A DNA stretch of 36,911 nucleotides, from positions 1 to 36,911 of the forward strand of contig CAZCNZ010000115.1 of the NCBI GenBank assembly GCA_964500245.1, in the 5' to 3' direction. Position 1 is the first letter of the stretch; every line of letters starts with the position of its first letter. The notes under the pieces are model-generated. The model was not told where the DNA came from and did not search any database. It saw only the letters and a list, made by a program, of their open reading frames with translations. Below are positions 9,540 through 36,518 of this stretch, in pieces. Made by a program: the position numbers and the translations under genes. This DNA is from an uncultured Thermoplasmatales archaeon. GTDB lineage: Archaea > Thermoplasmatota > Thermoplasmata > Lutacidiplasmatales > UBA184.

Positions 9540-9617
9540 GGAGGACCCACGACGTTCGGCGGTCCATAAGCTTCGTGGAGAGATGCTTTCTTAGAGCCGG
9601 GATGGCTCCGACGCCTC

Positions 9618-10079: not shown

Positions 10080-10124
10080 CCAGCCTCTTCGGGCGTTGCT
10101 TAGAGAAAGAAGGGGAAGGGGTTG

Positions 10125-10148: not shown

Positions 10149-10166
10149 GTCGGGCGCTCGAATCCC

Positions 10167-11585: not shown

Positions 11586-11676
11586 GGTTTCTTTCCTGAC
11601 GGAGTTCTTTCCGTCAAGGGACGTTAGTCGGGAAAGTCCGAGATAAGGCGGTGTTCCGCGACTACGACCGGTCGTT

Positions 11677-11707
11677 GGACCCCGTGCGAGAATTTAGCAC
11701 GGGGTCC
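11677..11707 (-). terminator. Perfect 11-bp hairpin downstream of the aminopeptidase gene
   Basis: GGACCCCGTGC-(9 nt)-GCACGGGGTCC begins 17 nt after the stop at 11724 on the minus strand. It lies upstream of the next gene's start at 11585. Confidence 0.4.
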
Positions 11708-11723
11708 CTTGCTTCGGAACTGG

Positions 11724-12839: not shown

Positions 12840-12861
12840 GCTCGGCTTAGCGAGCGGAGGT

Positions 12862-14574
12862 TCAATTGCCTTTGCCTTTCGCCGGAGGAACTTCGAATCC
12901 GCCCGGGATTCGGAATCTCGCGTCCTTCAGCAGTGCCAAGGATGACTCGTACCCTGCGTCGGCGTGCCGCGCGACCCCGAGACCGGGGTCGTTGTGAAGC
13001 ACCCGGCCGATTCGTCGGTCGGCGTCGGCCGACCCGTCCGCCACGACAACCAGGCCGGCGTGAATCGAGTTCCCGATTCCGACCCCGCCACCGTGGTGTA
13101 CGGACACCCATGTGGCGCCGCTCACGGCGTTCAGGAGCGCGTTCAGGATCGGCCAGTCCGCGATCGCGTCGGAACCGTCCCGCATCGCCTCGGTCTCGCG
13201 GAACGGGCTCGCGACGCTGCCGGTATCGTGGTGGTCTCGGCCGATGGCGATGGGAGCCGTCAGCTTCCCGTCGTGGACGAGCGCGTTCACGAGGTGGCCG
13301 AACCTCTCTCGCTCTCCGTAGCCCATGTAGCAAATCCGAGCGGGTAGGCCCTGGAACTTGACCTTGTCATGGGCGAGCCGGATCCACCGGCACAAGTGTT
13401 CGTTCGAGGAGAACTCGGAGAGGATCATCTGGTCGATCCGGTAGATGTCGTCGGGTTCGCCGCTGAGCGCGAGCCAACGGAACGGGCCACTTCCCACCGC
13501 GAAGAGGGGACGGATGTACCGGGGGACGTATCCCTCGATGTCGAACGCGTTCGTCACCCCCGCGTCCCGCGCTTGGGTTCGGAAGTTGTTCCCGTAATCG
13601 AACGCCCGCGCACCGCGCTGCCGCATCTCGAGGATCGCGCGCGCTTCGACCGCGATCGATGCCTTGACCTTGGTGAGGTAGCCTATCAAGTCGTTCTCGC
13701 GCGCGACCGCCGCTTGTTCGACCGTCATCCCCTGAGGGATGTAACCGACGCGAAGGTCGTGCGCCGCCGTCTGGTCGCTGAGCACGTCCGGGATGATTCC
13801 CCGGCGAGCGATCTCGGGGTAAACGTCGGCGGCGTTCCCGAGCAGGCCGACCGAGAGCGGTCGCCGGTCCTTGACCGCGGCTTGGATACGGGCGAGCGCG
13901 TCGTCGAGGTCGCGCGCCTGTTCGTCGAGGTAGCGGTGTCGGAGCCTCCGCTCGATCGCCCGCGGGTCGACGTCGACGATCAGCCCGACCCCTCCCAGCA
14001 TCGTGATGGCGAGCGGCTGCGCGCCTCCCATCTCCCCCAGCCCGGAGGTGAGCGTCCATCGGCCGGCGAGTCCGGGCGCGTTGAATTCGATGCGGGCCAA
14101 CGAGGCGAGGGTCTCGTAGGTCCCTTGGAGAATCCCCTGGGTGCCGATGTAGATCCAGCTACCCGCCGTCATCTGGCCGTACATGGTGAGCCCCCGGCTC
14201 TCGAGCTCCCAGAAGACGTCGTCCGTCGCCCACCGGGGCACGATCAGCGCGTTCGCGATCAGGACCCGCGGCGCGTCCGAGTGGGTGGGGAAGACTCCGA
14301 CGGGCTTCCCAGACTGGATGAGGAGCGTCTCCTCGTTTCCGAGGGTCTTGAGCGCCGAAATGATCCGGTCGTACGACTCCCAGTCGCGGGCGGCCTTTCC
14401 GCGCCCGCCGTACACGATCAGCCGCTTCGGGTCTCTAGCCACTTCGGCATCGAGGTTGTTCTGGAGGAGCCGGAACGCTGCCTCCTGACCCCATCCTCGG
14501 CAGGAGAGGGTCGGTCCGCGAGGAGATCGAATCACGCGGTCAGACTCTAGCGTCCGCGACATCGACGGACCCAC
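12862..14574 (-). CDS. hutU: Urocanate hydratase (urocanase)
   Basis: There is strong similarity to HutU throughout, for example [37 protein letters not shown]...[14 protein letters not shown]. Length is 570 aa. Confidence 0.92.
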
Positions 14575-14724
14575 GGGAACGACACCTAACTAGGCTTTCG
14601 GGAAGCCGGCTGTCGCCGGCAGGGACCACGGTGAAACGGCCGATTGAACGGACCTCCTCCCAGGTCGTTCGGTCGGGCGATGCGGGAAAACCTTACGGTC
14701 CCTCGACTGTAAGTCTCGTTGGGT

Positions 14725-14797
14725 GCCGCCATAGCTCAGTCGGTAGAGCGGCTGATTTGTAATCAGCAGGTCGGGAGTTCAATCCTCTCTGGCGGCT
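14725..14797 (+). tRNA. tRNA-Thr(UGU): tRNA-Thr (anticodon UGU)
   Basis: A full cloverleaf is present: acceptor GCCGCCA/TGGCGGC, D arm GCTC-AGTCGGTA-GAGC, anticodon arm GCTGA-TTTGTAA-TCAGC, and T arm GGGAG-TTCAATC-CTCTC. There is no intron and no encoded CCA. Confidence 0.9.
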
Positions 14798-14830
14798 TCA
14801 CATTCCCTGTTCTTGAGAAGAGCCGGGGCC

Positions 14831-16927
14831 TTACCGCGCGTGGTGTTCGATGCCGAGCTGGTCGTAGAGGAAACTCCAGATTTCGGTAAGATGGTCGGCC
14901 TGCTGCTCGACAGACTTGCCGAATCCATGACCGGTCTTTCGCTCGGTCCTCAACAGGATGGGAAGGGTCGACGAGGTGGCCGCCTGCAGCCGCGCGGCCA
15001 TCTTCCGCGCGTGCATCGGGTTCACCCGGTTGTCCGTGTCGGCCGTCAGCAAGAGGATCGCCGGGTACCGAACGCCGGGGCGAACATTGTGGTAGGGCGA
15101 GTACTTGAGGAGGTACTCGAAGGCGCCCGGATCCTCCGCGGACCCATACTCCGGCACCCAAAGAGAACCTCCGTCAAACAACTGATAGCGGAGCATGTCG
15201 AGCACGGGGACCGCGCAGACGACCGCGCGGAAGAGGTCGGGTCGCTGGGTGACGGACGCGCCGACGAGAAGCCCCCCGTTACTACCGCCCGCGATGGCGA
15301 GTTGGTTCGCATCGGTGTACCCCTCTGCGGCCAGCCATTCCGCCGCGGCGATGAAGTCGTCGAAGACGTTCTGCTTCCTTTCCCGCTTTCCGGCGTCGTG
15401 CCACGCCGACCCGTTTTCCGCGCCCCCGCGCAGCTGAGGGACGGCGAAGGTACCGCCGTCCCGAACGAACGGAAAGATGCCCGGGTCGAAGTACGGGGTG
15501 ACGCTGATCCCGAACCCACCGTATCCTTCGAGCAGAGTGGGGCCGGGGGCCGCTCGCTTCGCGCCCTTCCTCCGGACCAGGAACATCGTCACTTCGGTGC
15601 CGTCGTGGGAATGGTAGCGGACCAGACGGATGTCGACCCCTGATCTTGGGCCGGGAATCACCCGACCATCCAGGACGCGCAGCGGACCCCGGTCGGGTCG
15701 AAATCGGAAGGCCGTGCGTGGCGTCTGGAAGGAGAGGAAGGTGACCACGGCCTCCTCACCCGACCCCTCTCCGGTCGGCGGATAGGCGGTGCCGATGCCC
15801 GGCAGGGCTACCTCCCTCACACGCGCGCCGTCCGTGGTGTGGACGACGAGTCGGCTCGACGCATCGTGGAGGTAGCGCAGGACCATCCGGTCTCCCACCA
15901 CGGAGATACCTTCCAGAATGTCGTCGTTCTCGGGGACCAGCTCCTTCCAGGAGCTTTCCCGAGGATCGTCGAGGCCGATCGAGATGACCCGGCGCTTGGG
16001 GGCGTGATGGTCGGTGACCGTGATCAATCGGCCCAAACGGATCCCGGCGTTCCCGTCCCCGATGAAGAGGGCGTTGAGGCCGAGGACCATCGGGCGCACG
16101 TTCCCTCCGTCCCTCAGGTCCAGGGAATAGAGGTCGGTCGAACTCGAAAGGCGCTCGACGAAGATCACGAGGTGACGGTCATCCGGGCTGACGACCAGAT
16201 CCGAGACCGCCTGGGCGGGTTCGAAATCCTCCCCGAAGATCGCGGTGTCCGCCGCAGCCGCTGACCCAAGCCGATGGAAGAAGACCTGGGGAGTTCCCTT
16301 GCTCTTTGTCCTCTCGAGCCCGGGCCAGTTCGTGTAGTAGAATCCGGACCCGTCCTGGCGCCACGCCATGTTGACGAACCGAACATTGGGGATCCGGTCG
16401 AAGCTACGGCGCGATTGAAGGTCCCGAACCCGGAGGTTGGTCATGTCGGTCCCGTGGACGCTCAAACCGTAGCTGACCTTCGACCCATCCCACGCCGGGC
16501 AGACATCCAGAATGGAGGTCGTGCCGCTGGGATCCGCGTCCGCCGGGTCCAACACTCGTCTCGGGCGGTCCGAAGCGCTGTCGCGACAGAGGAGAGCCGC
16601 TTGGGGCGAGCCCGAGGGCCGCCGCAACCAGAAGAATCGGGACCCGGAACCAGAGGGGCCCGCCCGTGGCGGGTACAGCCCTCGCGCGGGGATCCGATCG
16701 CTCCGAACGAGGGAGACAAACTCCCGCCGGAGGGATGCCCGGAACGGACACACCCCCAGCATCCTTCGGGCGAGACGGTCCTGGGCCGCAACCCAGTGTC
16801 CGACCTCGCGGTTCGAAGGGTCCTCGAGCCAGCGATAGGGGTCGACCACCTCGATTCCGTGGTACGAGTCGCGGACCTCCCGGACGGGTGATGGCGGGTA
16901 CCGGAGGAGATTGGACGCACGCGACAC
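14831..16927 (-). CDS. Prolyl oligopeptidase (S9A family)
   Basis: The N-terminus carries DPYRWLEDP and the catalytic serine motif is GGSNGGLLVGA. The C-terminal alpha/beta hydrolase domain is present. Length is 698 aa. Confidence 0.9.
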   Translation of the reverse strand: MSRASNLLRYPPSPVREVRDSYHGIEVVDPYRWLEDPSNREVGHWVAAQDRLARRMLGVCPFRASLRREFVSLVRSDRIPARGLYPPRAGPSGSGSRFFWLRRPSGSPQAALLCRDSASDRPRRVLDPADADPSGTTSILDVCPAWDGSKVSYGLSVHGTDMTNLRVRDLQSRRSFDRIPNVRFVNMAWRQDGSGFYYTNWPGLERTKSKGTPQVFFHRLGSAAAADTAIFGEDFEPAQAVSDLVVSPDDRHLVIFVERLSSSTDLYSLDLRDGGNVRPMVLGLNALFIGDGNAGIRLGRLITVTDHHAPKRRVISIGLDDPRESSWKELVPENDDILEGISVVGDRMVLRYLHDASSRLVVHTTDGARVREVALPGIGTAYPPTGEGSGEEAVVTFLSFQTPRTAFRFRPDRGPLRVLDGRVIPGPRSGVDIRLVRYHSHDGTEVTMFLVRRKGAKRAAPGPTLLEGYGGFGISVTPYFDPGIFPFVRDGGTFAVPQLRGGAENGSAWHDAGKRERKQNVFDDFIAAAEWLAAEGYTDANQLAIAGGSNGGLLVGASVTQRPDLFRAVVCAVPVLDMLRYQLFDGGSLWVPEYGSAEDPGAFEYLLKYSPYHNVRPGVRYPAILLLTADTDNRVNPMHARKMAARLQAATSSTLPILLRTERKTGHGFGKSVEQQADHLTEIWSFLYDQLGIEHHAR

Positions 16928-17159
16928 GGACGATGGCCGGGAGTGCCATTCTCAACCCGGCAATAAAGAGTGCTTACGAGGATGCGGTTGCCGCTCTGCG
17001 CGAGGATTTGTGGAACCTAAACGGTCGGGCTCCGTCTCCGCGGTGAGTGGTTTCACGGTATTCCCGAGCCGACAAGCGTACAGGTCGTCTGAGGGAACCC
17101 AGCTTGCATCGCGTTCAGCATACGATAAGAGCCGTGAGCGGTCCTGAAGTGGGGGGATC

Positions 17160-18005
17160 TTGACGGCCCGGAGCGAATGGGATGCGCTCGCCAAATGGCG
17201 TGACTTCCGGATGGGAGAGCGCGGGGATCTTTGGCACCGCGCTCTGATCGATCCCGCTCTCCTGCGGATCCTCGGGTCCGTGCGGGGCCTCCGCGTGCTG
17301 GACGTGGGTTGCGGAAATGGCTACCTCACTCGGCGGCTGAAGCGACTCGGCGCGACGCAATCCGTCGGGGTGGACGCCGCGAATGCGTCGATTCAGCTCG
17401 CCCGACGTCGGGAGGCGGCTCATCCTACGGGGGCCGAGTTCCTCCGGGCAGATGCGGCCCGGCTGACCCAGTTCGAGGACGGCTCGTTCGACCGTGTCGT
17501 GGCGAACATGTCCCTGATGGACATCCGGGATGCGGCCGCGACGATCCGCGAGGTCGGCCGTCTCCTCGACCCCCGGGGACGTTTCGTGTGTTCGATCAGT
17601 CACCCCTGTTTCGACCTCGATGAACAATCGGCATGGGTCGTGGAGCGACGACCGTACCGTGAGACCATCGCTCGCAAGATCGAAGGATACCGACGCGAAC
17701 GTTCCGTCCGTGTCCCCTGGAAGGTCTCGGACACCGAGATGGCGTACACCACCTCGTTCCATCGGACCCTTGCCACTTACTCGCGGTACCTGAACGAAGC
17801 CGGCCTCGTCATCCTGCGCCTGGACGAACCTGCGCCCAAGCCCGAGCTGATACGCAAGAGTCCGCAGGGGCGATTCATCGCCGAAATTCCGCTCCACCTC
17901 GTGATTGAAGCCGCCCACAAGGGCACCTTCCTTGGTCCGCGCACACGCGCGGCTAGGGCGAAGCCCAAGGTCCCACGGCAGTCGAGGAAATCGACCAGGC
18001 CTTGA
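17160..18005 (+). CDS. Class I SAM-dependent methyltransferase
   Basis: Motif I is RVLDVGCGNGYLTRRL, and the post-I/II segments are FDRVVANMSLMDI and GGRFVCSISHP. It has a TTG start and a basic C-terminal tail. Confidence 0.8.
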   Translation: MTARSEWDALAKWRDFRMGERGDLWHRALIDPALLRILGSVRGLRVLDVGCGNGYLTRRLKRLGATQSVGVDAANASIQLARRREAAHPTGAEFLRADAARLTQFEDGSFDRVVANMSLMDIRDAAATIREVGRLLDPRGRFVCSISHPCFDLDEQSAWVVERRPYRETIARKIEGYRRERSVRVPWKVSDTEMAYTTSFHRTLATYSRYLNEAGLVILRLDEPAPKPELIRKSPQGRFIAEIPLHLVIEAAHKGTFLGPRTRAARAKPKVPRQSRKSTRP

Positions 18006-18130
18006 CGGAGACGCCCGGCGACGGTTTCATCGGCGAAGGGTTGGTTTCTCGTTGAAATCTCCAAAACCGACGCTGCCGGGAACGACTTCCAGGAGAAGGT
18101 TGCCAGCAAAGCTTCGGAGCCACAGATAGC

Positions 18131-18138
18131 TTGATAAT
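18131..18138 (+). promoter_or_regulatory. TATA-like box TTGATAAT
   Basis: It lies 24 nt upstream of the ATG at 18162 (MTLHRRW), within the only A/T-rich stretch of this intergenic region. Confidence 0.45.
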
Positions 18139-18140
18139 CC

Positions 18141-19088
18141 GTGATACGCATAGATACGTCAATGACTCTTCACCGACGCTGGCGCCTCGACTCGCGTCGG
18201 GGTATTAGCGAGATCATCGCGGTGATCTTCATTCTCGCGCTCACGATCGTGGCGGGCGCGATCCTGTGGACGTTCCGGGTCTACACTCCCCCCGACCCGC
18301 CGAGCCTGAGCATCCTCATCCGGTCCGGGGGTTCTAATCCCGTCTGGGGCGACCCGACCGATTGCCAGCCGCAGGGCTACAACACCACCATGTACCCGAT
18401 GTGGGGGAATGCGCTCAACACGTGGGAGTCCAAGTGGAACGATCAGTGCGAGAACAGCGTCACGGGAAACTTCTCGACGCTGAACTCGACCCAGTTCATC
18501 ATCTCCGCGCACTCGCCATCCTCTATCTCGCTGAGCCAGATCGAGTTCACGTTCGTTTGCAACAACGCGAGTTCCTCCGGAGGTCGGACCATCCTCGTCA
18601 ACGGGACGCTCGCCTCGATGGTTTGGTTCCCGGGCTATTCCTCTCAGCCGGCGGCGGGCGCTCCCTATCTCGGCTACTGCGGGAACTTCAATGCCGCGAG
18701 CCTGACCGCGGCGAACGGGATCTACTACAACCGTCTGGGGCTGTTCGTGCCGATCCGTCAGGGCGTGAACACCCTCGAGGACGGGGACACCTTCATCCTG
18801 TACATCCACAACGGAGGGTACCCTCTCGACTTCGAATGCCCGGTGAACACCTGGGCGCACGACCTCTACTACTTCAACGGCGAGAACAGGACCAACGGCT
18901 GTCTGCACGTCTACTCGAACGGGACGGCGATGCCGATCCCGCAGCTCGACTACGACGACTACCACGGGGCTCCCCCCTGGTGCTTCCAAAGCGTGAACGC
19001 CTGCACGATCTACCTGACCTACACGGGCAACCCCCAGACGACGCTCGCCGCGATCTCGGTCTACACCCTCGCGCCCCCCAAGGCGTAG
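18141..19088 (+). CDS. Archaeal type IV pilin-like (class III signal peptide) Cys-rich secreted glycoprotein
   Basis: The N-terminus RRGISEIIAVIFILALTIVAGAILW resembles the archaeal pilin/DUF1628-type prepilin signal. The mature part has about 10 Cys and at least 7 N-x-S/T sequons. The likely true start is ATG 18162. Confidence 0.65.
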   Translation: MIRIDTSMTLHRRWRLDSRRGISEIIAVIFILALTIVAGAILWTFRVYTPPDPPSLSILIRSGGSNPVWGDPTDCQPQGYNTTMYPMWGNALNTWESKWNDQCENSVTGNFSTLNSTQFIISAHSPSSISLSQIEFTFVCNNASSSGGRTILVNGTLASMVWFPGYSSQPAAGAPYLGYCGNFNAASLTAANGIYYNRLGLFVPIRQGVNTLEDGDTFILYIHNGGYPLDFECPVNTWAHDLYYFNGENRTNGCLHVYSNGTAMPIPQLDYDDYHGAPPWCFQSVNACTIYLTYTGNPQTTLAAISVYTLAPPKA

Positions 19089-19152
19089 ACCGGGGCCTGG
19101 GCCGATGGAATCATTGACTCGGTGGCTGTGCCCGTTGGACGGTGACTAAGGC

Positions 19153-19647
19153 ATGCCTCGTATGTCCCGGCGCCAGACCCGTCAGTTTCTGACGATCTGT
19201 GTTGCCATCGCCGCGGCGATCGTGGTCGTCTTGCTCGTACTGATCGCCGCGGGCATCCTGGTCCTTCCGGCGAAGTCGCCCACCCCGGTGACCATCACAT
19301 CCGTCACCCTAGAGATCCGTCAGGGCAACACGTCCGGCGGGATGCCTTGGTTCGGGCCGAGTACCGTCGTCTACAACCAGACCAACAGCAACTACCCGCT
19401 CCAGGTCTCGCCCGGGGGAACATGGAAGGTCGTCTGGGTGTTCGACAACTTCGACAATCACTTCCACAACATCACCCAGGTATTGCCCGCGACGCCGTTC
19501 TCGCTGGGAGCGACGCAGCCGAACCTCCCCTACGAGCTCCTGCCGAGCGAAGAGGACTGCGCGCTCGCGATTCTTCCGGTGGCTCCCTCGACGCCCGGGG
19601 CGAGCTACCACGTGACCATCGTGGTGGTCGCGCAGACCATCTCCTGA
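19153..19647 (+). CDS. N-terminally membrane-anchored extracellular beta-rich protein, unknown function
   Basis: A charged N-terminus is followed by the helix FLTICVAIAAAIVVVLLVLIAAGILVL and then a ~115-aa domain with N-x-S/T sequons. Confidence 0.55.
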   Translation: MPRMSRRQTRQFLTICVAIAAAIVVVLLVLIAAGILVLPAKSPTPVTITSVTLEIRQGNTSGGMPWFGPSTVVYNQTNSNYPLQVSPGGTWKVVWVFDNFDNHFHNITQVLPATPFSLGATQPNLPYELLPSEEDCALAILPVAPSTPGASYHVTIVVVAQTIS

Positions 19648-19687
19648 ACGTTCGCCCGACACGACCCTCGGACTGAATTCGTCCAGT

Positions 19688-20140
19688 TCACGGCGACGGC
19701 CCGGCCTTGCCGACCCACCGGTCTCCCGCTTTCAGGTGGGGACCGGGAAGCATTCCTTCGACGACCTCTCGCACCCGTCCCTCGCCGTCTAGAAAGAACG
19801 TGACCCGCTTCGCGACGCCCAGAAAGCCGAGAACTCCGTACTTTTGGGCGATCTCCTTCGTCGGGTCCGCCACCAAGGGGAACTCCGAGCTGCATTTGGC
19901 TCCGAACGCGGCCTGCGTCTCGTCCGAGTCGACGCTTACACCGATCACTTCGAATCCCGACCGCTGGAAGGCGGGGTAGCGCTCGGCGAACCCGCGGGTC
20001 TCGATCGTGCAGCCAGTGGTGTTCGCCTTCGGGAAGAAGTAAAGGATCACGGGACGCCCCCGATACGAAGAGAGGGTCCGGGAGGAACCGTCCGGCGCCC
20101 GGAATGTGAAATCCGGGGCCAGATCCCCTACTCCGAGCAT
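19688..20140 (-). CDS. bcp: Peroxiredoxin, Bcp type
   Basis: From ATG 20140 the sequence reads MLGVGDLAPDF...VILYFFPKANTTGCTIE...GVSVDS. The ORF-track extension to 20629 is junk-like and overlaps the upstream gene. Confidence 0.88.
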   Translation of the reverse strand: MLGVGDLAPDFTFRAPDGSSRTLSSYRGRPVILYFFPKANTTGCTIETRGFAERYPAFQRSGFEVIGVSVDSDETQAAFGAKCSSEFPLVADPTKEIAQKYGVLGFLGVAKRVTFFLDGEGRVREVVEGMLPGPHLKAGDRWVGKAGPSP

Positions 20141-20160
20141 GGGGGGGCCAATCTCGACGT

Positions 20161-21117
20161 CTATTTCACGAGGGCGAGTCGCTCCATCTCCTCGGGGGAG
20201 ATCGACGGCCGGGTGCCGAAACCGAGCACCTCGTCGAACCGCTCGGGCGAGGGCAGGGGCACGACGGTGGTCACGACCCACCGCCAGTGCAGGACGAACT
20301 GGAGCGCCGCCTGGGCTAGGGTCCTTCGGTGGCCCTCGGTCAGGAAACCAAGCCGGAGGACCGGATCGAACTCCTCGTGGAGCTGGCGGAGGTCGACCGG
20401 GGGTGCTCCGGGCCCGGCAAGAGAGGAGCGGGTAGCGAAACGACTCCCGTCGAGCCGACCCGAAGAGAATGGGTCGCGGGCGATGAGGTTCCGCTCTTCC
20501 GTTCCCGTGGCCGACTCGAAAAGGGGGATGAGGGCCGGGTCCAGAAGAGAGAGTCCGCCACTGAACAGCACCTGACCGCTCTCCGCCGAAGGGAGGCTGG
20601 AGACTCCGGGATCGATTCGGACGGACCACAGAATCCCCGACTTCTCTTCTTCGGGAGTGGACACCACTCGGACGCGGGTCGGATCCCCCGTCTCCTTCTC
20701 ACCACCGGGTTTCCAGTCAACCACCGCGATCGGCACCGGGGCGAGACGTCGCCGGCTCTGTTCGAGGGACTCGGCAAGGGCGGCCCCGGGGGCAGACTCG
20801 GCGACCGGCTCCATCTGCGCGGAGCCTTCCCTGACCAGAGACTCGAAGGAACGTCCCACGATTACGGAAACCTCCGGGTCGTCCTCAGGAAACGCCTGGG
20901 CGATCAATCGTTCCGCACGGGCGGGGGACCGCGTAGAGGCGACGTCGAACGTCGTTACTCCAAGCGCTCTCGCCCTCTGGAGCAGGGCGACCGTTCTCGC
21001 GTCGAGGGCCGGCGCGGCGGTCGGGGGCGGGTCGACGGCGATGGTGACACGGGAGAACGTCCGAGCAGAACCGGAAAGCCGCCGCCGTTCAATTGTCGGG
21101 GCGGCAACTTCGGACAT
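20161..21117 (-). CDS. Aldo/keto-reductase-fold protein, divergent
   Basis: The AKR-like order is RRRLSGS..., ALLQRARALGVTTFDVAS, SLEQSRRRLAPVPIAVVDW, and C-terminal TLAQAALQFVL...VVPLPSPERFDEVL. I could not find the usual D-x-x-x-x-Y catalytic Tyr. The start is taken at ATG 21117. Confidence 0.5.
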   Translation of the reverse strand: MSEVAAPTIERRRLSGSARTFSRVTIAVDPPPTAAPALDARTVALLQRARALGVTTFDVASTRSPARAERLIAQAFPEDDPEVSVIVGRSFESLVREGSAQMEPVAESAPGAALAESLEQSRRRLAPVPIAVVDWKPGGEKETGDPTRVRVVSTPEEEKSGILWSVRIDPGVSSLPSAESGQVLFSGGLSLLDPALIPLFESATGTEERNLIARDPFSSGRLDGSRFATRSSLAGPGAPPVDLRQLHEEFDPVLRLGFLTEGHRRTLAQAALQFVLHWRWVVTTVVPLPSPERFDEVLGFGTRPSISPEEMERLALVK

Positions 21118-21192
21118 TGGAAGAGGGACCCTCCGCCGGTCGAGGGGCACCCTCGTACAGAACCGTTCCGCCACGCCGCCCGCCCAGCATGG

Positions 21193-21198
21193 CTTATC
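21193..21198 (+). promoter_or_regulatory. TATA-like element CTTATC upstream of rfcL
   Basis: It lies 23 nt upstream of the ATG at 21221. This is a weak box. Confidence 0.3.
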
Positions 21199-21220
21199 TC
21201 CGGCACTCGCTACCCCGGCA

Positions 21221-22918
21221 ATGCCTTCCCACGCTCGCGTACCGCTTCCTCTCGCGGAGCGGCTCCGACCGACGCGGTTGGACGACATCGTTGGGAACCC
21301 AAGGGCGCGGTACGAGCTTCGGGCATGGGCCACGGCATGGCAGGAGGGCCGAACTCCGGACCGTCGGGCTGCGGTCCTCTCCGGGCCTCCTGGGGTCGGC
21401 AAGACGACCGCTGCCCTGGCGCTCGCCGCGGATCTCGGCTGGACCGTGGTCGAGATGAACGCTTCCGACGCGCGCAACGAGGGGGCCGTCGAGCAGGTTG
21501 CGGGCCGCGCGTCGGTGAGCCACACGCTCGGCGAGACGCCCACGGGGAAGGGCCCGAGACATGCGCTCATCCTGCTCGACGAAGCGGATTGCCTCTCCGG
21601 TCGCCTCACCGAAACTGCGCGGGCGCGGCCGACACCCCCTGTGCTTTCCGATTTCCTCAGAGGCCGATACGGAACGATCGAGGCGTTGAACGCGACCTGG
21701 GGACTCCAACCGAAGTCGAAGCCCCGACCGTTCGACGACTGGGCGGCCGTCCCACGAACCCCCGGGAACGCGGGTTGGGCTCGCCTTCCGGCCGCACGAC
21801 GTGACCTCGAGGAGTGGAGGGCCGCGGGGCGGACGACCGACCTATCGGACCGCGGCGGGCTAGGCGCGATCTCCCGTCTCGTGCGTTCCACGCACCAGCC
21901 CATCGTGCTCACGGTGAACGACGACCGGAACTTGACCCGATACTCCCCGGTTTTTCGGACGGGGGTAGTACGCATCCGCTTCTACCCCGTCCACGACTCC
22001 GAGCTCACGGCGTTCGTCCAGCGGGTGGCGCATTCGGAGCGCATCTCCCTTCATCCGGGGGCGCTCGATTCGATCGTGAAGCGGTCCCACGGGGATGTGC
22101 GGGCCGCGCTGAACGACCTCGACGCGATCGCCCCGCTTGCCCCCGGGCCCTGGCAACTTTCCGTTCTCGGGTTCCGGGACCTCCAGGCCGACTTCGTCGC
22201 GCTGACGGAGGAGGCGCTCTCCAACCCGCGCTACTTCCGCAACGTCGAGGTCCAGGACCGACTCGATGCGACCCCCGACGACCTCCTTCCATGGATCGAG
22301 GAGAATGTGCCGCGCTTCGCCCCGGACGCGAAGCGCCGGGAGGCGGCGTATCGGGTGCTCGCCATCGCCGAACAGTTCCTCGCGCGTGCGCGGCGGGCCC
22401 GGGTGTACGGGCTCTGGAGCTACGCCTCCGAGCTGATGACGGGCGGCGTGTCGCTCGCGCTCCACGACCGACCCGCCGGCGGTGGGGGCGTCGCGTTCCC
22501 TCAGTTCCTCAGCGAGATGGGCCGTTCCCGTAGCTTCCGCGCCACTCGGGAATCGCTCGCCAAGAAAGCAGGCCAGCGGTTGCATCTTTCCGTCGGCAAG
22601 AGCCGGGAGGTCGTGCTACCGTTCCTCGAGGGCCTTTTTGCCGCCTCGTCGGGTCGGGGCGTTCACGCCGAAGTCCGCAAGGTCGTTGCCGAGATCGCCC
22701 GGGAGCTCGAACTCACTCCCGAAGAGGTCGGGTTCCTGCTCGGCGTGGCCCCGGATGCGCGTCCGGTCACTGAACTCCTTGCGAGAGCGGCGACTCCGCC
22801 CGCGGGCTCGGGGCGGACCGATGGAGAAACCCCGGCACAACGTCCGCCGGGCCCCGACGCCGGAAGCGATGCGGCGAAGCGGGTCCAGCGCCAGCTTTCG
22901 GAGTACGGGAGCGGCTGA
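21221..22918 (+). CDS. rfcL: Replication factor C large subunit, with internal insertion
   Basis: Motifs are ERLRPTRLDDIVGN, Walker A LSGPPGVGKTT, EMNASDAR, Walker B LILLDEAD, sensor-1 region PIVLTVND, and GDVRAALNDL. The extreme C-terminus QRQLSEYG is PIP-box-like. The start is taken at ATG 21221 because the upstream ORF part is antisense junk. Confidence 0.88.
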   Translation: MPSHARVPLPLAERLRPTRLDDIVGNPRARYELRAWATAWQEGRTPDRRAAVLSGPPGVGKTTAALALAADLGWTVVEMNASDARNEGAVEQVAGRASVSHTLGETPTGKGPRHALILLDEADCLSGRLTETARARPTPPVLSDFLRGRYGTIEALNATWGLQPKSKPRPFDDWAAVPRTPGNAGWARLPAARRDLEEWRAAGRTTDLSDRGGLGAISRLVRSTHQPIVLTVNDDRNLTRYSPVFRTGVVRIRFYPVHDSELTAFVQRVAHSERISLHPGALDSIVKRSHGDVRAALNDLDAIAPLAPGPWQLSVLGFRDLQADFVALTEEALSNPRYFRNVEVQDRLDATPDDLLPWIEENVPRFAPDAKRREAAYRVLAIAEQFLARARRARVYGLWSYASELMTGGVSLALHDRPAGGGGVAFPQFLSEMGRSRSFRATRESLAKKAGQRLHLSVGKSREVVLPFLEGLFAASSGRGVHAEVRKVVAEIARELELTPEEVGFLLGVAPDARPVTELLARAATPPAGSGRTDGETPAQRPPGPDAGSDAAKRVQRQLSEYGSG

Positions 22919-30550: not shown

Positions 30551-32329
30551 GTGGCGCGGATTGCCATCCTACTTCGGGACCGATGTCACCCGAAGGAGTG
30601 TCAGTGGGAGTGCCAGGCCTACTGCCCGCCGGTCCGCATGGGGCAGGAATGCATCGTCGAAGGGCCTGACGGTCGACCGATAATCTCCGAGAGTCTCTGC
30701 ATCGGCTGCGGGATCTGCGTCCACAAGTGCCCGTTCGACGCCATCAAGATTCTCAACACTCCCGAGGCCAACGAGGCGGAGATCGTCCACCGGTACGGGT
30801 ACAACGGCTTTCGGCTCTACCGCTTGCCCATTCCTCCCCCCCAGGGGATCACGGGACTTCTCGGCCCGAACGGGACGGGGAAGTCGACCGCGCTCCGGCT
30901 CCTCGCGGGCAACGACGTGCCGAACCTCGGGGATTACGAACACCCCGGGGAATGGTCGAAGGTTCTCGAGCACTACCGGGGCACCGCGCTCCACGCGCAC
31001 TTCGAGCGGGTCGCGAAAGGCGAACTTCGCAGCGTGGTGAAGCCGCAGTACGTGGACCGTCTCGCGGACGAGTCGGTCACGGCCCGAGAGTTCGTCGCGT
31101 CGGCCGGGGGCCGCGCCGCGTCGATCCTCGAAGAGGTCGGGCTGGGGGGACGCGGGGACCGGCGTCTCACGGAGTTGTCGGGCGGGGAGCTCCAGCTCGC
31201 CGCGATCGCGCGCACGCTCGCTACGGACGCCGACCTCTACTTGATCGACGAGCCGTCGAGCTACCTCGACATCGTCCACCGGCTCGAGGTCGCGCGTCTC
31301 CTTCGCCGGCTGGGGGAGACGAAGAGCGTGCTCGTGGTCGAGCACGACCTCGGCCTCCTCGACTATCTCGCCGACCAGGCGCATCTCCTCTATGGCGAGT
31401 CGGCCGCGTTTGGGGTGATCAGCCACCCGATCCCGATGCGCTCTGCGATCAACACCTACCTCACGGGTTACCTGAAGGATGAGAACGTTCGGTTCCGTAC
31501 CGAACCGGTACGGTTCGTGGCGCATCCCCCGAAACCGGCGGTTCGCCAGAACGTCCTCGTGGAGTTCCCCGCGCTCGAGAAGCAGTTCCCCGAGTTCCAT
31601 CTCGCCGTGAGTGCCGGATCCCTCGCGAAGGGGGAGACGGTCGGCGTGGTCGGGCCGAACGCCACGGGAAAGACAACGTTCGTCCGGATGCTGGCGGGGG
31701 TGGAGGTCCCCACGAGCGGAACTCCGCCCCCCGGCGTCACCGTCAGTTACAAGCCCCAGTACCTCAAGGCGACGCAGGCGGCCAGCCTTCGGGAGCGGGC
31801 GAACGCGCTCGCCGGGGACCCATCGTTCGACGGGAAGCTGTTCGAGCGCGAGCTCGTCCCGGGGCTTCACCTCGATGAAGTCCTCGACGTCGCACTCCCC
31901 GACCTCTCGGGAGGCGAGCTCCAGCGGGCCGCGGTCGCCCTCGCGCTCGCTCGGCCCGCGACGCTCTACCTCCTCGACGAGCCGTCCGCCTACCTCGATG
32001 CCGACGAGCGGATGTCGATGGCGCGCCTTCTCCGTCGCCAGGTCGAACGGCAGGCGGTGAGCGCGCTGGTGGTGGACCACGACGTCTATTTCTTGGACCT
32101 CGCATGCGATGCGCTCATGACGTTCCGCCCCGACGCGCCCGACGGTTCCCGAGGACGCGGCGACGGTCCGTTTCCGATGCGGGAAGGGATGAACCGACTG
32201 CTCCGAAGTGTCGACATCACCTTCCGCCGGGATGCGGAGACCCTTCGCCCCCGCATCAACCGGGAAGGTTCGGTCCTGGACCGGGAACAGCGGGCGAAGG
32301 GGGAGTATTACTATGAAGCCGCCGCGTGA
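30551..32329 (+). CDS. ABCE1 (RNase L inhibitor homologue) ribosome-recycling ATPase
   Basis: The N-terminal double 4Fe-4S domain is CHPKECQWECQAYCP...CIGCGICVHKCPFDAI. Two ABC cassettes follow (GPNGTGKST / LSGGELQ; GPNATGKTT / LSGGELQ). It has a GTG start. Confidence 0.92.
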   Translation: MARIAILLRDRCHPKECQWECQAYCPPVRMGQECIVEGPDGRPIISESLCIGCGICVHKCPFDAIKILNTPEANEAEIVHRYGYNGFRLYRLPIPPPQGITGLLGPNGTGKSTALRLLAGNDVPNLGDYEHPGEWSKVLEHYRGTALHAHFERVAKGELRSVVKPQYVDRLADESVTAREFVASAGGRAASILEEVGLGGRGDRRLTELSGGELQLAAIARTLATDADLYLIDEPSSYLDIVHRLEVARLLRRLGETKSVLVVEHDLGLLDYLADQAHLLYGESAAFGVISHPIPMRSAINTYLTGYLKDENVRFRTEPVRFVAHPPKPAVRQNVLVEFPALEKQFPEFHLAVSAGSLAKGETVGVVGPNATGKTTFVRMLAGVEVPTSGTPPPGVTVSYKPQYLKATQAASLRERANALAGDPSFDGKLFERELVPGLHLDEVLDVALPDLSGGELQRAAVALALARPATLYLLDEPSAYLDADERMSMARLLRRQVERQAVSALVVDHDVYFLDLACDALMTFRPDAPDGSRGRGDGPFPMREGMNRLLRSVDITFRRDAETLRPRINREGSVLDREQRAKGEYYYEAAA

Positions 32330-32925: not shown

Positions 32926-34413
32926 TCAGTACTGCGGGAGCGAGGGATCAACGCGCTGAGCCCACGCGTTGATTCCTCCGCGCAGGGTTCGAACGTTCGA
33001 GAAGCCCAGGTCGAGGAGGAATCGAGTGGCCTCCGCGGAGCGGATGCCGCTCCGACAGTAGACGACGAGCTTCGAGGCCCGAGTGAGTTCGTCCACCCGC
33101 TCGGCAAGTTCGCCTTTCGGGATCAGGTGGGCTCCGGGGAGGTGGGCGATCGCCCACTCTCCGGGCTCCCGGACGTCGACCAGGAAGGGGGGCTCCTCCG
33201 ACTCGAGTTCGGCGTGCAGCGCTTCCGGTTCCACGCGAGGGACGTTGTCCCGGGCCGCCGCGGCTTCCGGAGTCGGGACGCCGCAGAAGGCGGGGTAGTC
33301 GATGAGCCCCTTCTGCGTCGCGTGCGCGGAGCAGAGCACGCAGTGCGGATTCTTGCGGATCCGAAGCTCGCGGAACTTGAGCGCGAGGGCGTCGAAGAGG
33401 AGCAACCGCCCAACGAGGGAGTCGCCCTGCCCGAGGATGAGCTTCACGGTCTCCGTCGCCTGAAGGACCCCGATCAGTCCGGGGAGGACGCCGAGAACGC
33501 CGGCCTCGGCGCACGACGGCACGAGGTCCGGTGGGGGCGGTTCGGGGTAGAGGCACCGGTAGCAGGGGCCGTGACGAGCGTCGAAGACGCTCACCTGGCC
33601 CTCGAAGCGGTAGATGGAGCCGTAAACGCTCGGTTTCTTCAACAGTACCGTCGCGTCGTTGACGAGGTAACGGGTCGGGAAGTTGTCGGTGCCATCCAGG
33701 ACCACGTCGTACGGCGCGATGATGTCGAGCGCGTTCTCGGAGGTGAGTCGAGTCTCGTGCGCGACAACCCGGGTCCCCGGATTGAGCCCTTCGAGGCGCT
33801 CCTTCGCTGCGACGAGCTTGGGGCGGCCAACGTCCGACGTCGAGTAGAGGACCTGCCGCTGCAGGTTCGATAGGTCGACCGAGTCGAAGTCGACGAGGCC
33901 GATCTCCCCGACTCCCGCGGCGGCGAGATAGAGGGCGGCCGGGGCTCCGAGTCCCCCCGCTCCCACCAGGAGGACCTTCGCGCGGCGGAGCTTCCGCTGT
34001 CCGGCCACGCCGACCTCAGGCAGGAGGAGATGACGGCTGTACCGGCGGAGATCGTCGGTCGAAAACGCTTCGACCGCGGTGTCGGCCGACTCAGAACGCG
34101 AAGCCGGACGGAGCGGTCCCCTCGCCCCGGCGGGCGCTCCCCCGGCGACGGCAGGGACGATGGAGACGACGTCCCCCTCCTTCAGGGGGGTTGCTTCGCG
34201 GTCGAGGAATCGAATGTCCTCGTCGTTCAAGTAGACCGTGACGAAACTGCGGAGGCGGCCTTCTGGGGTGAAGAGGTGCCGCTTGAGCGCCGGATTCGAG
34301 TCGGCCAGAGAGCGGATGACCCCCCCGACGGTGCTGCCCTCGAGGGCGAGTTCGGCAGCCCCGCCGGCGAACGACCTCAGCGGTGTGGGGATCTTGACGG
34401 TCGCCTTTGGCAT
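32926..34413 (-). CDS. Tri-domain fusion: CysO/MoaD-like ubiquitin-fold sulfur carrier (aa 1-92, ends AVAGG) + MoeB/ThiF/MoeZ-type E1 adenylyltransferase + C-terminal rhodanese
   Basis: The Ubl is IPTPLRSFAGG...FVTVYLNDEDIRFL...GDVVSIVPAVAGG. The E1 carries RYSRHLLLPEVG, LLVGAGGLGAPAALYLAAAGVG, DLSNLQRQ, CYRC...SCAEAGVLG...HCVLC. The rhodanese carries LVDVREPGEW...VVYCRSGIRS. A GGGGAGGG SD-like element lies 7 nt upstream of the ATG. Confidence 0.85.
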   Translation of the reverse strand: MPKATVKIPTPLRSFAGGAAELALEGSTVGGVIRSLADSNPALKRHLFTPEGRLRSFVTVYLNDEDIRFLDREATPLKEGDVVSIVPAVAGGAPAGARGPLRPASRSESADTAVEAFSTDDLRRYSRHLLLPEVGVAGQRKLRRAKVLLVGAGGLGAPAALYLAAAGVGEIGLVDFDSVDLSNLQRQVLYSTSDVGRPKLVAAKERLEGLNPGTRVVAHETRLTSENALDIIAPYDVVLDGTDNFPTRYLVNDATVLLKKPSVYGSIYRFEGQVSVFDARHGPCYRCLYPEPPPPDLVPSCAEAGVLGVLPGLIGVLQATETVKLILGQGDSLVGRLLLFDALALKFRELRIRKNPHCVLCSAHATQKGLIDYPAFCGVPTPEAAAARDNVPRVEPEALHAELESEEPPFLVDVREPGEWAIAHLPGAHLIPKGELAERVDELTRASKLVVYCRSGIRSAEATRFLLDLGFSNVRTLRGGINAWAQRVDPSLPQY

Positions 34414-34450
34414 CGTTCGACCCTCCCCGACGAGACTCTTAGGCTCTTCC

Positions 34451-34924
34451 TTACCCTCGGACCACTAACGGAGACGAGGGACGCTTCCCCGTCACGGACA
34501 GGGGGACCTCGCGGAAGGTCGCGGAGTCCGGCTCGAGTTCGAACGCGGCGACGGCGGGGGTCGCCGACGCCGTGACCGCCAGGACGAGGTAGGTGTACCA
34601 GGGCCACGCATGCTCCTGGTCGAACTGCGACGGGCGGGCCGGATGGTCGGGATGGGAATGGTAGAATCCGACCACCGCTCGGCCCGTCCCCTCGAGGTTG
34701 CGTTCCAGTTTTCTAAGTTCCTCGGGAGGAATGAGGAACCGGCGACGGCGCTCACCGTCGAACACGTTCCCCGCTGGTTCAAGGGCGAGGATCGTTCGAC
34801 CCGTGGTTCCCTCGGGCTCCGGGACCGCGCCGACAAGGAAACCGCAGCACTCTTCCGGGTACGTCGTCCGTCCGTGCGCCTGCATCTCGGCGAGGAGAGA
34901 CGCGGGGAGGATCACCGACTTCAC
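34451..34924 (-). CDS. mec: JAMM/MPN+ metalloprotease (Mec / HvJAMM-like)
   Basis: The JAMM motif is complete: EECCGFLVG, then GFYHSHPDHPARPSQFD (H-x-H-x7-S-x2-D). Length is 157 aa. It overlaps the cysM stop by 4 nt. Confidence 0.85.
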   Translation of the reverse strand: MKSVILPASLLAEMQAHGRTTYPEECCGFLVGAVPEPEGTTGRTILALEPAGNVFDGERRRRFLIPPEELRKLERNLEGTGRAVVGFYHSHPDHPARPSQFDQEHAWPWYTYLVLAVTASATPAVAAFELEPDSATFREVPLSVTGKRPSSPLVVRG

Positions 34925-35895
34925 GACCGCTCCCTCTCGTGGGGGTCGTGTCCTCCGTCCGGAAGGATCGTCACCACGACGGAACCCTCGGCAGAGCGGC
35001 CAACCTGAACGGCCGCCCAGACCGCCGCTCCGGCGGACGACCCGACCGCGAGCCCTTCGGCCCGAGCGAGCCGGAGCTGCATCTCGAGGGCGTCCTCCGT
35101 CTCCACCCGGACTGTCTCGTCCACGAGATGATCGTCGTACGTCGAGGGTCGGAGCGCAGTCGGAAGGTGCTTCAGCCCCTCGATTCCGTGGATTGGTCCC
35201 GGTGGCTCGACGCCGATGACGCGGACGGAGGGATTGCGCTCCTTGAGGTAGCGGCTCACGCCCGAGATCGTCCCCCCCGTTCCAACGCCCGCGACGAAGT
35301 GGGTGACCCGGCCCGCGGTCTGCTGCCAGATCTCGGGACCCGTGGTTGCGTAGTGGGCTCGCGGGTTAGAGGGATTGTTGTACTGGTCCGGGTAGAAGTA
35401 TCGGCCCGGTTCGGCCGCGGCCCTTCGATGTGCCTCGCGCTGGGCGCCGTCCGTCCCCTCTGAGGGGTCCGTGAACACCACGCCGGCTCCAAACGCCCGG
35501 ATTCGGGCCACGCGCGAGGGGTGAGCGTTCGCGGGAAGGATGATCTCTACCGGGAATCCAAGGCGAGCTCCCAGCATGGCATACGCGACGGCGGTGTTCC
35601 CGCTCGATGCATCCATCAACGTCCGACCCTCGCCCAATCGGCCGCCGGCGATCGCATCGAGGACGATCCCTCGTGCCGTGCGGTCTTTCACCGATCCCGT
35701 CGGGTTGAGGTGCTCCGCCTTCGCCAGGAGTTCGAACCGGCCCCCGCTCTCCTGAACGATCGACGGCAGCGGGACCAGCGGGGTGTTACCGATGGCCGCC
35801 ACGATCGGGTCTAGGAGCGGAGCCCGGCGGGTCAAGGGGGTGCGGAGGGCCGACCGCGGTCCCGATGTCAGCGGAGTTGAATCAAGTGGGTACAC
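34921..35895 (-). CDS. cysM: PLP-dependent cysteine synthase, CysM/CysK family
   Basis: The PLP-lysine motif is EHLNPTGSVKDRTA. It is followed by SSGNTAVAYA and GVGTGGTISG. It has a GTG start, and the N-terminus is uncertain. Confidence 0.85.
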   Translation of the reverse strand: MYPLDSTPLTSGPRSALRTPLTRRAPLLDPIVAAIGNTPLVPLPSIVQESGGRFELLAKAEHLNPTGSVKDRTARGIVLDAIAGGRLGEGRTLMDASSGNTAVAYAMLGARLGFPVEIILPANAHPSRVARIRAFGAGVVFTDPSEGTDGAQREAHRRAAAEPGRYFYPDQYNNPSNPRAHYATTGPEIWQQTAGRVTHFVAGVGTGGTISGVSRYLKERNPSVRVIGVEPPGPIHGIEGLKHLPTALRPSTYDDHLVDETVRVETEDALEMQLRLARAEGLAVGSSAGAAVWAAVQVGRSAEGSVVVTILPDGGHDPHERERS

Positions 35896-36518
35896 CGCAT
35901 TCCTCCTCGGCCGATTGAATCGACCAGGTCCACCCCGGTCTGACCGAGGAGGGCCTCGGTGAGGTGCTTGTCGAAGACATCGCAGAGGAGGAACGGGTGC
36001 GTCATAGCGCTGTGGCGAAAGACACAGTTCGACCGGGTGATCCGGATCGAACCGTCGGGCGCCCGGTCAGTGGTGCAGCGGAATCCGAGGCGGTTCAGCG
36101 AGCGGACCACGTTCTCGGCTCGCTCTTCCGGGGTCCCCGTCTTCGGGACCTCCTTCACGACCTCGTGCGCCATCCGCTCGGCGGCGTCGGCGAACAGCGC
36201 GCTCACGTACCCCTCGCCTTCGCGGGCGAGGAGCTCGTCCACGACGGTGTCGAGAATCAGGTCGTACTTCTTCGGGAACAATTCCTGAGCGGAGCTCGTA
36301 AGCACGAAGCGCTTCCGGGGACGGCCGACCCCTTCTCGACGGAACGACGGCACGACGAGACCCCGTTCCTCGAGGCGTCCCAAGTGGCCGCGAGCAGCGC
36401 TCTCCTGGATCCCGAGCTTCCGAGCAAGGTCCCTTGCAGTTCGGGGAGCGATCGCGAGTTCCTCGAGGATCCGGCCCCGGGTTCCCTCGAGCAGTTCCGC
36501 CTCGGCCATCACTCCCAT
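35868..36518 (-). CDS. wHTH transcriptional regulator with four-Cys C-terminal domain (SufR-like)
   Basis: The N-terminal ArsR/DeoR-like wHTH is RILEELAIAPRTARDLARKLGIQESAARGHLGRLEERGLV. The C-terminal Cys pattern is C-x16-C-x13-C-x29-C. The gene is divergent from sufC. Confidence 0.65.
   Translation of the reverse strand: MGVMAEAELLEGTRGRILEELAIAPRTARDLARKLGIQESAARGHLGRLEERGLVVPSFRREGVGRPRKRFVLTSSAQELFPKKYDLILDTVVDELLAREGEGYVSALFADAAERMAHEVVKEVPKTGTPEERAENVVRSLNRLGFRCTTDRAPDGSIRITRSNCVFRHSAMTHPFLLCDVFDKHLTEALLGQTGVDLVDSIGRGGMRCTHLIQLR

Follow-up and report, generated by a model that had tools for sequence, protein, structure and literature searches.

A CysO-type sulfur carrier encoded in frame with its own activating enzyme: a probable pro-protein of a JAMM-containing operon in a Thermoplasmatales archaeon

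Activating (E1) enzymes of the MoeB/ThiF/Uba kind adenylate the free C-terminal carboxylate of a ubiquitin-like (Ubl) sulfur carrier, and a glycine held in a peptide bond is unreactive. How, then, is a carrier to be activated when its Gly-Gly (GG) end continues in frame into another protein, and that protein is the activating enzyme itself? The locus that raises this question lies in DNA of an uncultured Thermoplasmatales archaeon (assembly GCA_964500245.1, contig CAZCNZ010000115.1, positions 1 to 36,911, forward strand); this whole stretch of 36,911 nts is called the window below. One open reading frame (ORF) on its minus strand encodes a Ubl sulfur carrier, an E1 domain and a rhodanese domain, and beside it are genes for a JAMM metalloprotease and a CysM-like cysteine synthase. 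The explanation favoured here, with a probability of roughly 0.75, is that the fusion is a pro-protein, a CysO-type carrier whose post-GG ‘tail’ is its own activating enzyme, that the JAMM protease would cut it, and that cysteine synthesis of the CysO/CysM/Mec+ type would follow. Since the E1 needs a free carboxylate, and given the comparative evidence set out below, this is the reading that fits best.

One reading frame, three domains

The fusion gene and its parts are as follows.

32926..34413, minus strand: fusion ORF, 495 aa, stop codon at 32926-32928
34138..34413, minus strand: Ubl sulfur-carrier domain (ThiS/MoaD, CysO-like), residues 1-92, ending VPAVAGG
34138..34143, minus strand: codons of Gly91-Gly92 (GGG GGA), with the predicted scissile bond between Gly92 and Ala93
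34063..34137, minus strand: linker and putative pro-peptide, residues 93-117 (APAGARGPLRPASRSESADTAVEAF), rich in Ala, Pro, Arg and Ser
33289..34062, minus strand: E1-type adenylation domain (MoeB/ThiF/MoeZ-like), residues 118-375
32929..33252, minus strand: C-terminal rhodanese domain, residues 388-495, active-site loop C453-RSGIRS

Pfam finds ThiS, ThiF and Rhodanese within the one protein. The ThiS match (residues 6-92, E=4.2e-15) covers its profile from 1 to 76 of 76, and as the profile is matched to its last position, the Ubl domain stops precisely at GG. On the minus strand the junction reads GTC CCT GCC GTC GCC GGG GGA GCG CCC (V P A V A G G A P); there is no in-frame stop codon between the Ubl and E1 domains, and GG is followed by 403 residues. 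An earlier note on this DNA had described residues 1-92 as ending in PAVAGG, with the GG codons at 34138-34143, and as running without a stop through a linker into the E1 domain, and both the reading of the sequence and Pfam confirm it. The Ubl domain scores well with NCBIfam SAMP1 (E=1e-14) and weakly with TIGR01682 moaD (E=0.006). Its top match in the PDB is Mycobacterium tuberculosis CysO (3dwg_C, E=1.7e-17), with which it aligns over its full length, PAVAGG ending both.

The E1 domain, matched by Pfam ThiF at residues 125-358 (E=1.9e-84), has RYSRH at 124-128, GAGGLG at 151-156, a zinc-type CxxC at 284-287 with a second at 358-361, and Cys301. Rhodanese is matched at residues 396-486 (E=3.6e-20). 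The E1 motifs, and Cys453 and Arg458 of the rhodanese domain, are invariant in 45 aligned homologues. To judge by its motifs this is an E1 adenylation domain with a C-terminal rhodanese, MoeZ-like, whose catalytic residues appear complete. The NCBIfam MoeB/MoeZ models match with E of about 1e-145, the MoeZ model reaching 481 bits, below its cut-off of 647 bits.

Separate synthesis of the E1 from an internal start was considered and rejected. A scan of the sequence between residues 81 and 135 found no in-frame ATG, GTG or TTG, and use of the nearest start, a GTG at residue 136, would remove RYSRH. With no internal start available, the E1 can be produced only within the fusion. The initiator is the only methionine in the 495-residue protein.

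How general the arrangement is was assessed in two surveys. That of proteins took in the best 120 clusters (69-100% identity, from many independent samples), there being at least 120 in all. That of genomes returned more than 564 relatives in species-representative genomes, the best 80 loci being characterised. All stop-to-stop ORFs in the window and in 85 fetched loci, resolving to 83 distinct loci, were scored for Ubl, JAMM and CysM with hidden Markov models (HMMs) based on the window proteins and related sequences, and for E1 by phmmer with the window's E1-rhodanese region. Sequence was retrievable up to 10 kb around each match, and Ubl domains were sought over about 6 kb on either side.

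The ThiS+ThiF+Rhodanese architecture is present in all 120 of the best protein clusters, the nearest named relatives being metagenome-assembled genomes (MAGs) of Thermoplasmata. Among the best 80 loci those of Thermoplasmata are at 57-75% identity, and the others, at 51-60% over the full length, are from Acidobacteriota (Terriglobia, Bryobacterales, Vicinamibacteria, Blastocatellia) and also from MAGs of Gemmatimonadota and Chloroflexia. An artefact of assembly, frameshift or read-through was rejected, the same three-domain protein being found in at least 120 clusters and at 67 independent loci.

The fusion is thus widespread, in hundreds of species, and it is already catalogued. The earlier note had called the design unusual; in the sense of rarity that did not hold, since such fusions are listed in PMC1779556, PMC2948915 and PMC11237513. 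Those catalogued are the Ubl-ThiF of Campylobacter and Firmicutes in 2006 (PMC1779556), the Ubl-E1-TBP of Thaumarchaeota in 2010 (PMC2948915) and, in 2024, the moaD-moeB and moaD-moeBR clusters 356.1-356.3 of Euryarchaeota, with >55% identity to Acidobacteria, for which horizontal transfer was suggested (PMC11237513). All have the same domain order, with the Ubl N-terminal to the E1. The moaD-moeBR clusters are very probably the same family as the window fusion, to which the 51-60% identities found here correspond. Neither cleavage of a Ubl-E1 fusion nor a link to JAMM or cysM is discussed in these three surveys.

The window is archaeal, yet its fusion protein is 51-60% identical over the full length to proteins of Acidobacteriota (in loci L023-L085). 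These identities are consistent with the transfer between Acidobacteria and Archaea that was proposed in PMC11237513.

The Gly-Gly junction and the adjacent JAMM gene

The 83 distinct loci fall into four states.

Fused, with GG at the junction: 67 loci; JAMM no more than 300 bp upstream in 65; cysM upstream in 58 of 65 evaluable
Split (order cysM-JAMM-Ubl-E1, a free Ubl ORF directly before E1): 14 loci; JAMM in 13 of 13 and cysM in 13 of 13 evaluable
Fused, with GG lost: 1 lineage; JAMM 0; cysM 0
E1 only, without Ubl: 1 locus; JAMM 0; cysM 0

GG is kept in 119 of the 120 protein clusters, with the Ubl ending ...SIVPA[IV]AGG, and in 67 of the 68 lineages represented by the fused loci. The residue that follows is Ala in 73 clusters, Ser in 40, Thr in 4 and Val and Leu in 1 each, and the second is mostly Pro. 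The linker as a whole is rich in Ala, Pro, Ser, Thr and Arg, and its length ranges from 13 to 27 residues in the archaeal set and from 8 to 30 in the genomic loci. Its mean pairwise identity is 0.22, the values for the Ubl and for the E1-rhodanese being 0.67 and 0.77. In an AlphaFold2 model (from a 45-sequence alignment), read as per-residue confidence (pLDDT), the Ubl, E1 and rhodanese domains are confident, with the Ubl at 80-93. Residues 89-117 are below 50, so that the end of the carrier and the tether are predicted to be flexible and exposed.

A dipeptide so well kept beside a hypervariable linker tells against the possibility, which we consider quite improbable, that the Ubl is never cleaved and serves the E1 for docking, regulation or auto-inhibition, the true carriers being free-standing proteins encoded elsewhere. 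There are models for such an arrangement. In Campylobacter and some Firmicutes a solo ThiS accompanies the Ubl-ThiF fusions, and a different role was assigned to the fused Ubl (PMC1779556); it is also usual for Archaea to have several ThiS/MoaD-type proteins (PMC2948915). However, the Ubl of the Campylobacter type is distinct from ThiS and has the solo ThiS beside it, and neither is the case here: the domain is CysO-like from end to end, not a distinct Ubl family, and an HMM search of the window, and of about 6 kb on either side in the 68 fused lineages (67 having GG, 1 lacking it), found no second Ubl ORF. Nor is the gene context the thiamine one of the Campylobacter and Firmicutes fusions, the neighbours here being cysM, JAMM and a helix-turn-helix (HTH) regulator.

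The split orthologues argue in the same direction. All 14 split carriers have residues after GG, among them R, V, Y, IG, VQG, SASR, NGDR, TDFVNW and CCPCGCCC. Of the 120 closest free-standing relatives, 72 are tailed (1-27 aa) and 41 end at GG. Tails in 14/14 split and 72/120 free-standing carriers point to post-GG processing as a routine requirement of the family. The split locus L041 of Vicinamibacterales is especially informative. Its carrier ends ...SVAGGNGDR, stop, and the sequence goes on as MALSNDEVKRYSRH in the same frame as that of its fused neighbour L027, with which it is 89% identical and in which the reading is uninterrupted (...SVAGGAPTGTVEAQALTNDEVQRYSRH). The two differ by a stop codon and a start codon, in frame, within the linker. 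The nearest neighbours of split loci L041, L049, L054 and L058 are all fused. The two states must then have been switched several times, and hence be functionally equivalent, which is hard to reconcile with a Ubl that is never released.

Several split and free-standing carriers drew attention in their own right. Cys-rich tails follow GG in several acidobacterial free-standing carriers, as in GG-CCCCPCL, GG-CCPCGCCC, GG-SCACCCPC and GG-CARRCICR (clusters P0141, P0145, P0157, P0161, P0166 and P0167), and also at the split loci L028 (5953-6297), L054 (5968-6285) and L064 (5199-5579). Seven of the 72 tailed free-standing relatives have at least 3 Cys in the tail. Such tails may be metal- or persulfide-binding propeptides. 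L086 (314-1864), on a MAG contig with an accession (JAKATS01) like those of the Thermoplasmata YP series, is a split version in which 66 bp separate the E1-rhodanese from a Ubl that ends in GG-R. At L062 (5992-7215; Thermoplasmata archaeon YP1.bin82) there is an orthologous E1-rhodanese of 407 aa, with Ubl, JAMM and cysM absent nearby.

If the carrier is to be freed, the obvious candidate protease is encoded next door, and the cysteine synthase gene is beyond it.

34451..34924, minus strand: gene for a JAMM/MPN+ metalloprotease of 157 aa, lying 37 bp before the fusion gene
34921..35895, minus strand: gene for a CysM-like cysteine synthase dependent on pyridoxal phosphate (PLP), 324 aa, sharing 4 bp (GTGA) with the JAMM start

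The JAMM protein has the motifs YPEECCG and HSHPDHPARPSQFD (HxHx7SxxD), and matches Pfam Prok-JAB (E=5e-22), NCBIfam desampylase (E=8e-21) and PDB 2kcq_A (E=3e-25). The window protein keeps E...HxHx7SxxD complete, as do those of 78 of 80 related loci. The CysM-like protein matches Pfam PALP (E=3e-75) and TIGR01138 cysM (E=7e-97; 324 bits, below the cut-off of 394). In the PDB it is matched best by the CysM of Salmonella and of E. coli, that of M. tuberculosis being outside the top 60. At its N-terminus the CysM homologue is extended by about 30 residues.

That the JAMM follows the fusion and not just the cysteine synthase is seen where cysM is missing. A motif-intact JAMM stands beside all 7 fused loci without cysM. 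At one locus (L004/L005, 7074-7505, the P0113 locus on a 2.3-Mb contig) cysM is reduced to a remnant of residues 220-317, called as an 81-aa ORF, and beside this remnant the JAMM motif is intact and the GG-bearing fusion complete. An intact JAMM where cysM is absent argues for a role of the protease beyond cysteine release: a JAMM that served cysteine release only would be without a reason to persist once cysM had gone, and a maturase would have one. That it accompanies the fusion even there is also not what a never-cleaved Ubl would predict.

The converse case, in effect a natural knock-out, is the only lineage that has lost GG, that of cluster P0083 (L001-L003; fusion gene at 8001-9482), where GG has become AEA and the Ubl ends VWAGAEAD as against VPAIAGG. 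It keeps the downstream synteny of the window (bPH_5, ABCE1, ABC transporter) and the HTH regulator (88% identity, L001), and has about 6.7 kb of unrelated genes in place of cysM and JAMM; neither an HMM search nor tblastn (E up to 10) found a remnant of either gene in this lineage. Measured against its own E1, no Ubl in the 120 clusters has diverged as far as that of P0083 (z=-3.85), where 7 of 34 near-invariant positions are altered as against 0.5 on average. This pattern of substitution shows what appears to be relaxed constraint on the Ubl once GG was gone. The lineage can be read for a Ubl that has a use uncleaved, as it retains the domain in frame with GG and JAMM gone. Relaxed, not maintained, constraint tells against that use.

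Of what the earlier note had proposed, the need for cleavage after GG before activation gains support from the GG in 119 of 120 clusters, the tails on 14 of 14 split carriers and the in-frame L041/L027 pair, all of which fit the predicted cut. The nomination of the adjacent JAMM as protease is borne out by its adjacency at 65 of 67 fused loci, its retention without cysM and its joint loss with GG in P0083. Whether orthologues are split or fused, which the note had left to be checked, has both for an answer, with 67 fused with GG and 14 split among 83 loci. Its alternative of an uncleaved docking module plus a separate cysO is disfavoured, the search of about 6 kb around the fused loci having found no further Ubl ORF and the top PDB match being CysO.

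Cleavage after GG may be granted and the protease disputed. In the CysO pathway of M. tuberculosis, Mec+ is needed only for cysteine release, as CysO ends in GG. Another protease, or self-cleavage, could cut the fusion, leaving to the JAMM only Mec+-type cysteine release or a deconjugase role. Besides the example of Mec+, this has in its favour that the JAMM is not adjacent at two fused loci (L020 and L024), and that the protease cutting M. tuberculosis MoaX was not assigned (PMC4326299). It has little likelihood, however. The motif-intact JAMM of 7 fused loci without cysM, one of them with cysM decayed, is not accounted for; JAMM enzymes of this type are known to cleave Ubl proteins from linear fusions and to remove residues behind GG (PMC8832034, PMC5925218); and since the bond chemistry of cysteine release and of propeptide removal is the same, a separate enzyme is unnecessary. 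A second protease is the less economical assumption when compared with a JAMM maturase.

Yet another possibility concerns the pathway and not the cut. Database names for these proteins are ‘molybdopterin-synthase adenylyltransferase MoeB’, the NCBIfam MoeB models are the best matches (E=1e-149), though 2 of the 3 top models are below their own cut-offs, and the architecture was filed under cofactor biosynthesis in PMC11237513. A MoaD-MoeB(-rhodanese) fusion dedicated to the molybdenum cofactor (MoCo), and not a carrier for cysteine synthesis, is nevertheless very improbable. At 58 of 65 evaluable fused loci the fusion is accompanied by cysM and JAMM, and not by moaE, moaA or moaC. In the window neither these MoCo genes nor thiamine genes (thiG, thiH, thiC) are adjacent or among the larger ORFs. 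Structurally the Ubl is nearest to CysO, with the moaD model matching only at E=0.006. The MoeB (molybdopterin synthesis) annotation thus probably misassigns the pathway of the fusion genes. The mycobacterial MoeZR does serve both MoCo and cysteine synthesis (PMC3227635); by analogy with it, the released E1 could act on other carriers too, and an additional MoCo role would be compatible with the pro-protein explanation.

Proposed maturation and its precedents

What the analysis shows directly is the architecture, catalytic motifs that are intact for all four predicted activities, the kept GG, the variable linker with its predicted disorder, the interchange of fused and split states, and the occurrence and loss of JAMM together with the fused GG form. 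In the proposed scheme, whose cleavage, protease and metabolic product we infer, the JAMM would, after translation, hydrolyse the Gly92-Ala93 bond in the disordered linker. The products would be a carrier of 92 residues, its Gly carboxylate now free, and a MoeZ-like E1-rhodanese still bearing about 25 linker residues at its N-terminus. The E1 domain would adenylate the carrier, and the rhodanese persulfide would convert it to the thiocarboxylate. From this and an activated serine, which may be O-acetylserine or O-phosphoserine, the CysM-like PLP enzyme would form carrier-Gly-Cys, and the same JAMM would then hydrolyse the Gly-Cys peptide bond and so release free cysteine. The two ‘jobs’ of the JAMM are chemically one reaction, hydrolysis of a peptide bond after the terminal Gly of the carrier.

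The operon is of type 4c of Iyer et al. 2006, a type comprising ThiS/MoaD, E1-rhodanese, JAB and cysteine synthase and known from Acidobacteria (Solibacter), Salinibacter and Chloroflexus (PMC1779556), and it is the counterpart of the CysO/CysM/Mec+/MoeZ(R) pathway of M. tuberculosis. It shares with that pathway the same four predicted activities, here in one gene row, a carrier that aligns with CysO, a rhodanese-tailed E1 and a full-motif JAMM. The differences are that the host here is an archaeon, that the CysM is nearer, among solved structures, to the enterobacterial enzyme than to that of M. tuberculosis, and that the carrier is the N-terminal domain of the E1, with no free GG end. Because the carrier is embedded in the E1 polypeptide, proteolysis must precede activation.

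Each element of that proteolysis has a parallel elsewhere. HcyD of the Wolinella methionine pathway reportedly does both jobs, trimming HcyS-Ala and releasing homocysteine (an account attributed to Krishnamoorthy and Begley, 2011). In thioquinolobactin synthesis the JAMM QbsD trims GG-CF from QbsE, and in that of chuangxinmycin CxnF was proposed to remove ten residues from CxnE (PMC5925218). In these systems the carrier is made, as here, with a tail behind GG, and a JAMM from the same gene cluster frees the GG end ahead of adenylation by the E1, as predicted for the fusion. However, the tails of the QbsE/CxnE/HcyS type are of 1-10 residues with no known function, and that considered here is a functional enzyme of 403 residues. 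Since the ‘tail’ is an enzyme, cleavage would yield two active proteins in a 1:1 ratio.

Whole proteins joined to a carrier through GG are known from MoaD-MoaE fusions. DRJAMM cuts DR2607 of Deinococcus radiodurans and HvJAMM1 cuts SAMP1-MoaE, both of them linear fusions of MoaD or SAMP1 to MoaE (PMC8832034), and in MoaX of M. tuberculosis a cut after Gly82 is required and Gly81 is needed for it (PMC4326299). There, as here, a Ubl carrier is joined through GG to the next enzyme of its pathway, the partner being the downstream sulfur acceptor MoaE in the one case and the upstream activating E1 in the other. More distant are the ubiquitin precursors, both those of eukaryotes (ubiquitin-ribosomal protein and polyubiquitin) and that of Caldiarchaeum, whose ubiquitin precursor CsUb is processed by the JAMM/Rpn11 protein CsRpn11 (PMC6043591). 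They too have a Ubl translated with residues or a protein after GG and released by a deubiquitinase (DUB). They belong to protein-modifier systems, whereas this is a sulfur-metabolism operon without E2 or E3, and the partner is the E1 itself.

Several points weigh against the pro-protein explanation. For every member of the Ubl-E1-rhodanese architecture cleavage is something that we infer, and the study of the analogous MoaX cut assigned it no protease (PMC4326299). The CysM scores below the NCBIfam cysM cut-off and, among solved structures, is nearer to the enterobacterial than to the M. tuberculosis enzyme; its use of a protein thiocarboxylate in preference to free sulfide is suggested by operon linkage. 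The survey was local to each match, and a free-standing carrier or a second E1 may be encoded elsewhere in a genome. At the two fused-GG loci without adjacent JAMM, L020 and L024 (both Thermoplasmata), cysM abuts the fusion directly. In L020 (Candidatus Sysuiplasma superficiale) the JAMM sits 4.4 kb downstream; in L024 none was found on the 9.8-kb contig. Finally, the P0083 lineage retains an intact in-frame Ubl without GG or JAMM; the lineage thus at any rate tolerates an uncleaved Ubl-E1, for which some secondary role is conceivable.

Could the uncleaved form have a function of its own before the cut? It might be a zymogen-like latent state, in which the tethered Ubl fills the carrier-binding site of its own E1 in cis, so that no carrier can be activated. 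The JAMM cut would then be a regulated and committing on-switch (under metal or redox control, for instance), releasing carrier and E1 1:1 and already assembled for channelled adenylation. In a cell where the released E1 were the only one, tRNA thiolation and MoCo synthesis would be gated by the cut as well. We regard this elaboration as unlikely.

Were the pro-protein explanation true, hundreds of soil and sediment species, among Thermoplasmata archaea, many Acidobacteriota and some Gemmatimonadota and Chloroflexia, would make carrier and activator as one polypeptide that is useless until cut by a JAMM. This would be a compact prokaryotic analogue of ubiquitin-precursor processing, with the ‘DUB’ needed both before the first catalytic cycle and after it. 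The family would also offer a clean in vitro system, two proteins and one bond, for how a JAMM recognises a Ubl and a linear Gly-X bond. Understanding of the chemistry is unchanged, each step having an experimentally studied precedent. What would be new is a JAMM-matured pro-sulfur-carrier with its own E1 as propeptide, within a CysO-type cysteine operon, and not a new kind of system.

Other features of the window

The remaining features lie around and beyond the three genes discussed.

34421..34428, minus strand: Shine-Dalgarno-like GGGGAGGG, read from the sequence, 7 nts before the ATG of the fusion gene
35868..36518, minus strand: ArsR/MarR-type winged-helix regulator, 216 aa, heading the gene row and overlapping the cysM start by 28 nts
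30551..32329, plus strand: ABCE1/RLI (RNase L inhibitor) gene, an archaeal marker

From its position GGGGAGGG is a putative ribosome-binding Shine-Dalgarno element. The regulator matches Pfam HTH_20, MarR_2 and HTH_5 (E of about 1e-7), and its place at the head of the row suggests that it controls the cysM-JAMM-fusion operon. Its C-terminal domain of about 150 aa has several Cys and His (CVFRHSAMTHPFLLC...MRCTH), and it may be a sensor of sulfur, metal or redox state.

At a distance from the operon, the region 3200-22918 of the window has the genes of an ordinary heterotroph metabolism, none of them linked to the sulfur carrier; they include those for a thiolase, a 3-hydroxyacyl-CoA dehydrogenase, a dienelactone hydrolase, an acyl-CoA synthetase, urocanase, a prolyl oligopeptidase, a methyltransferase, a peroxiredoxin and an AAA ATPase.

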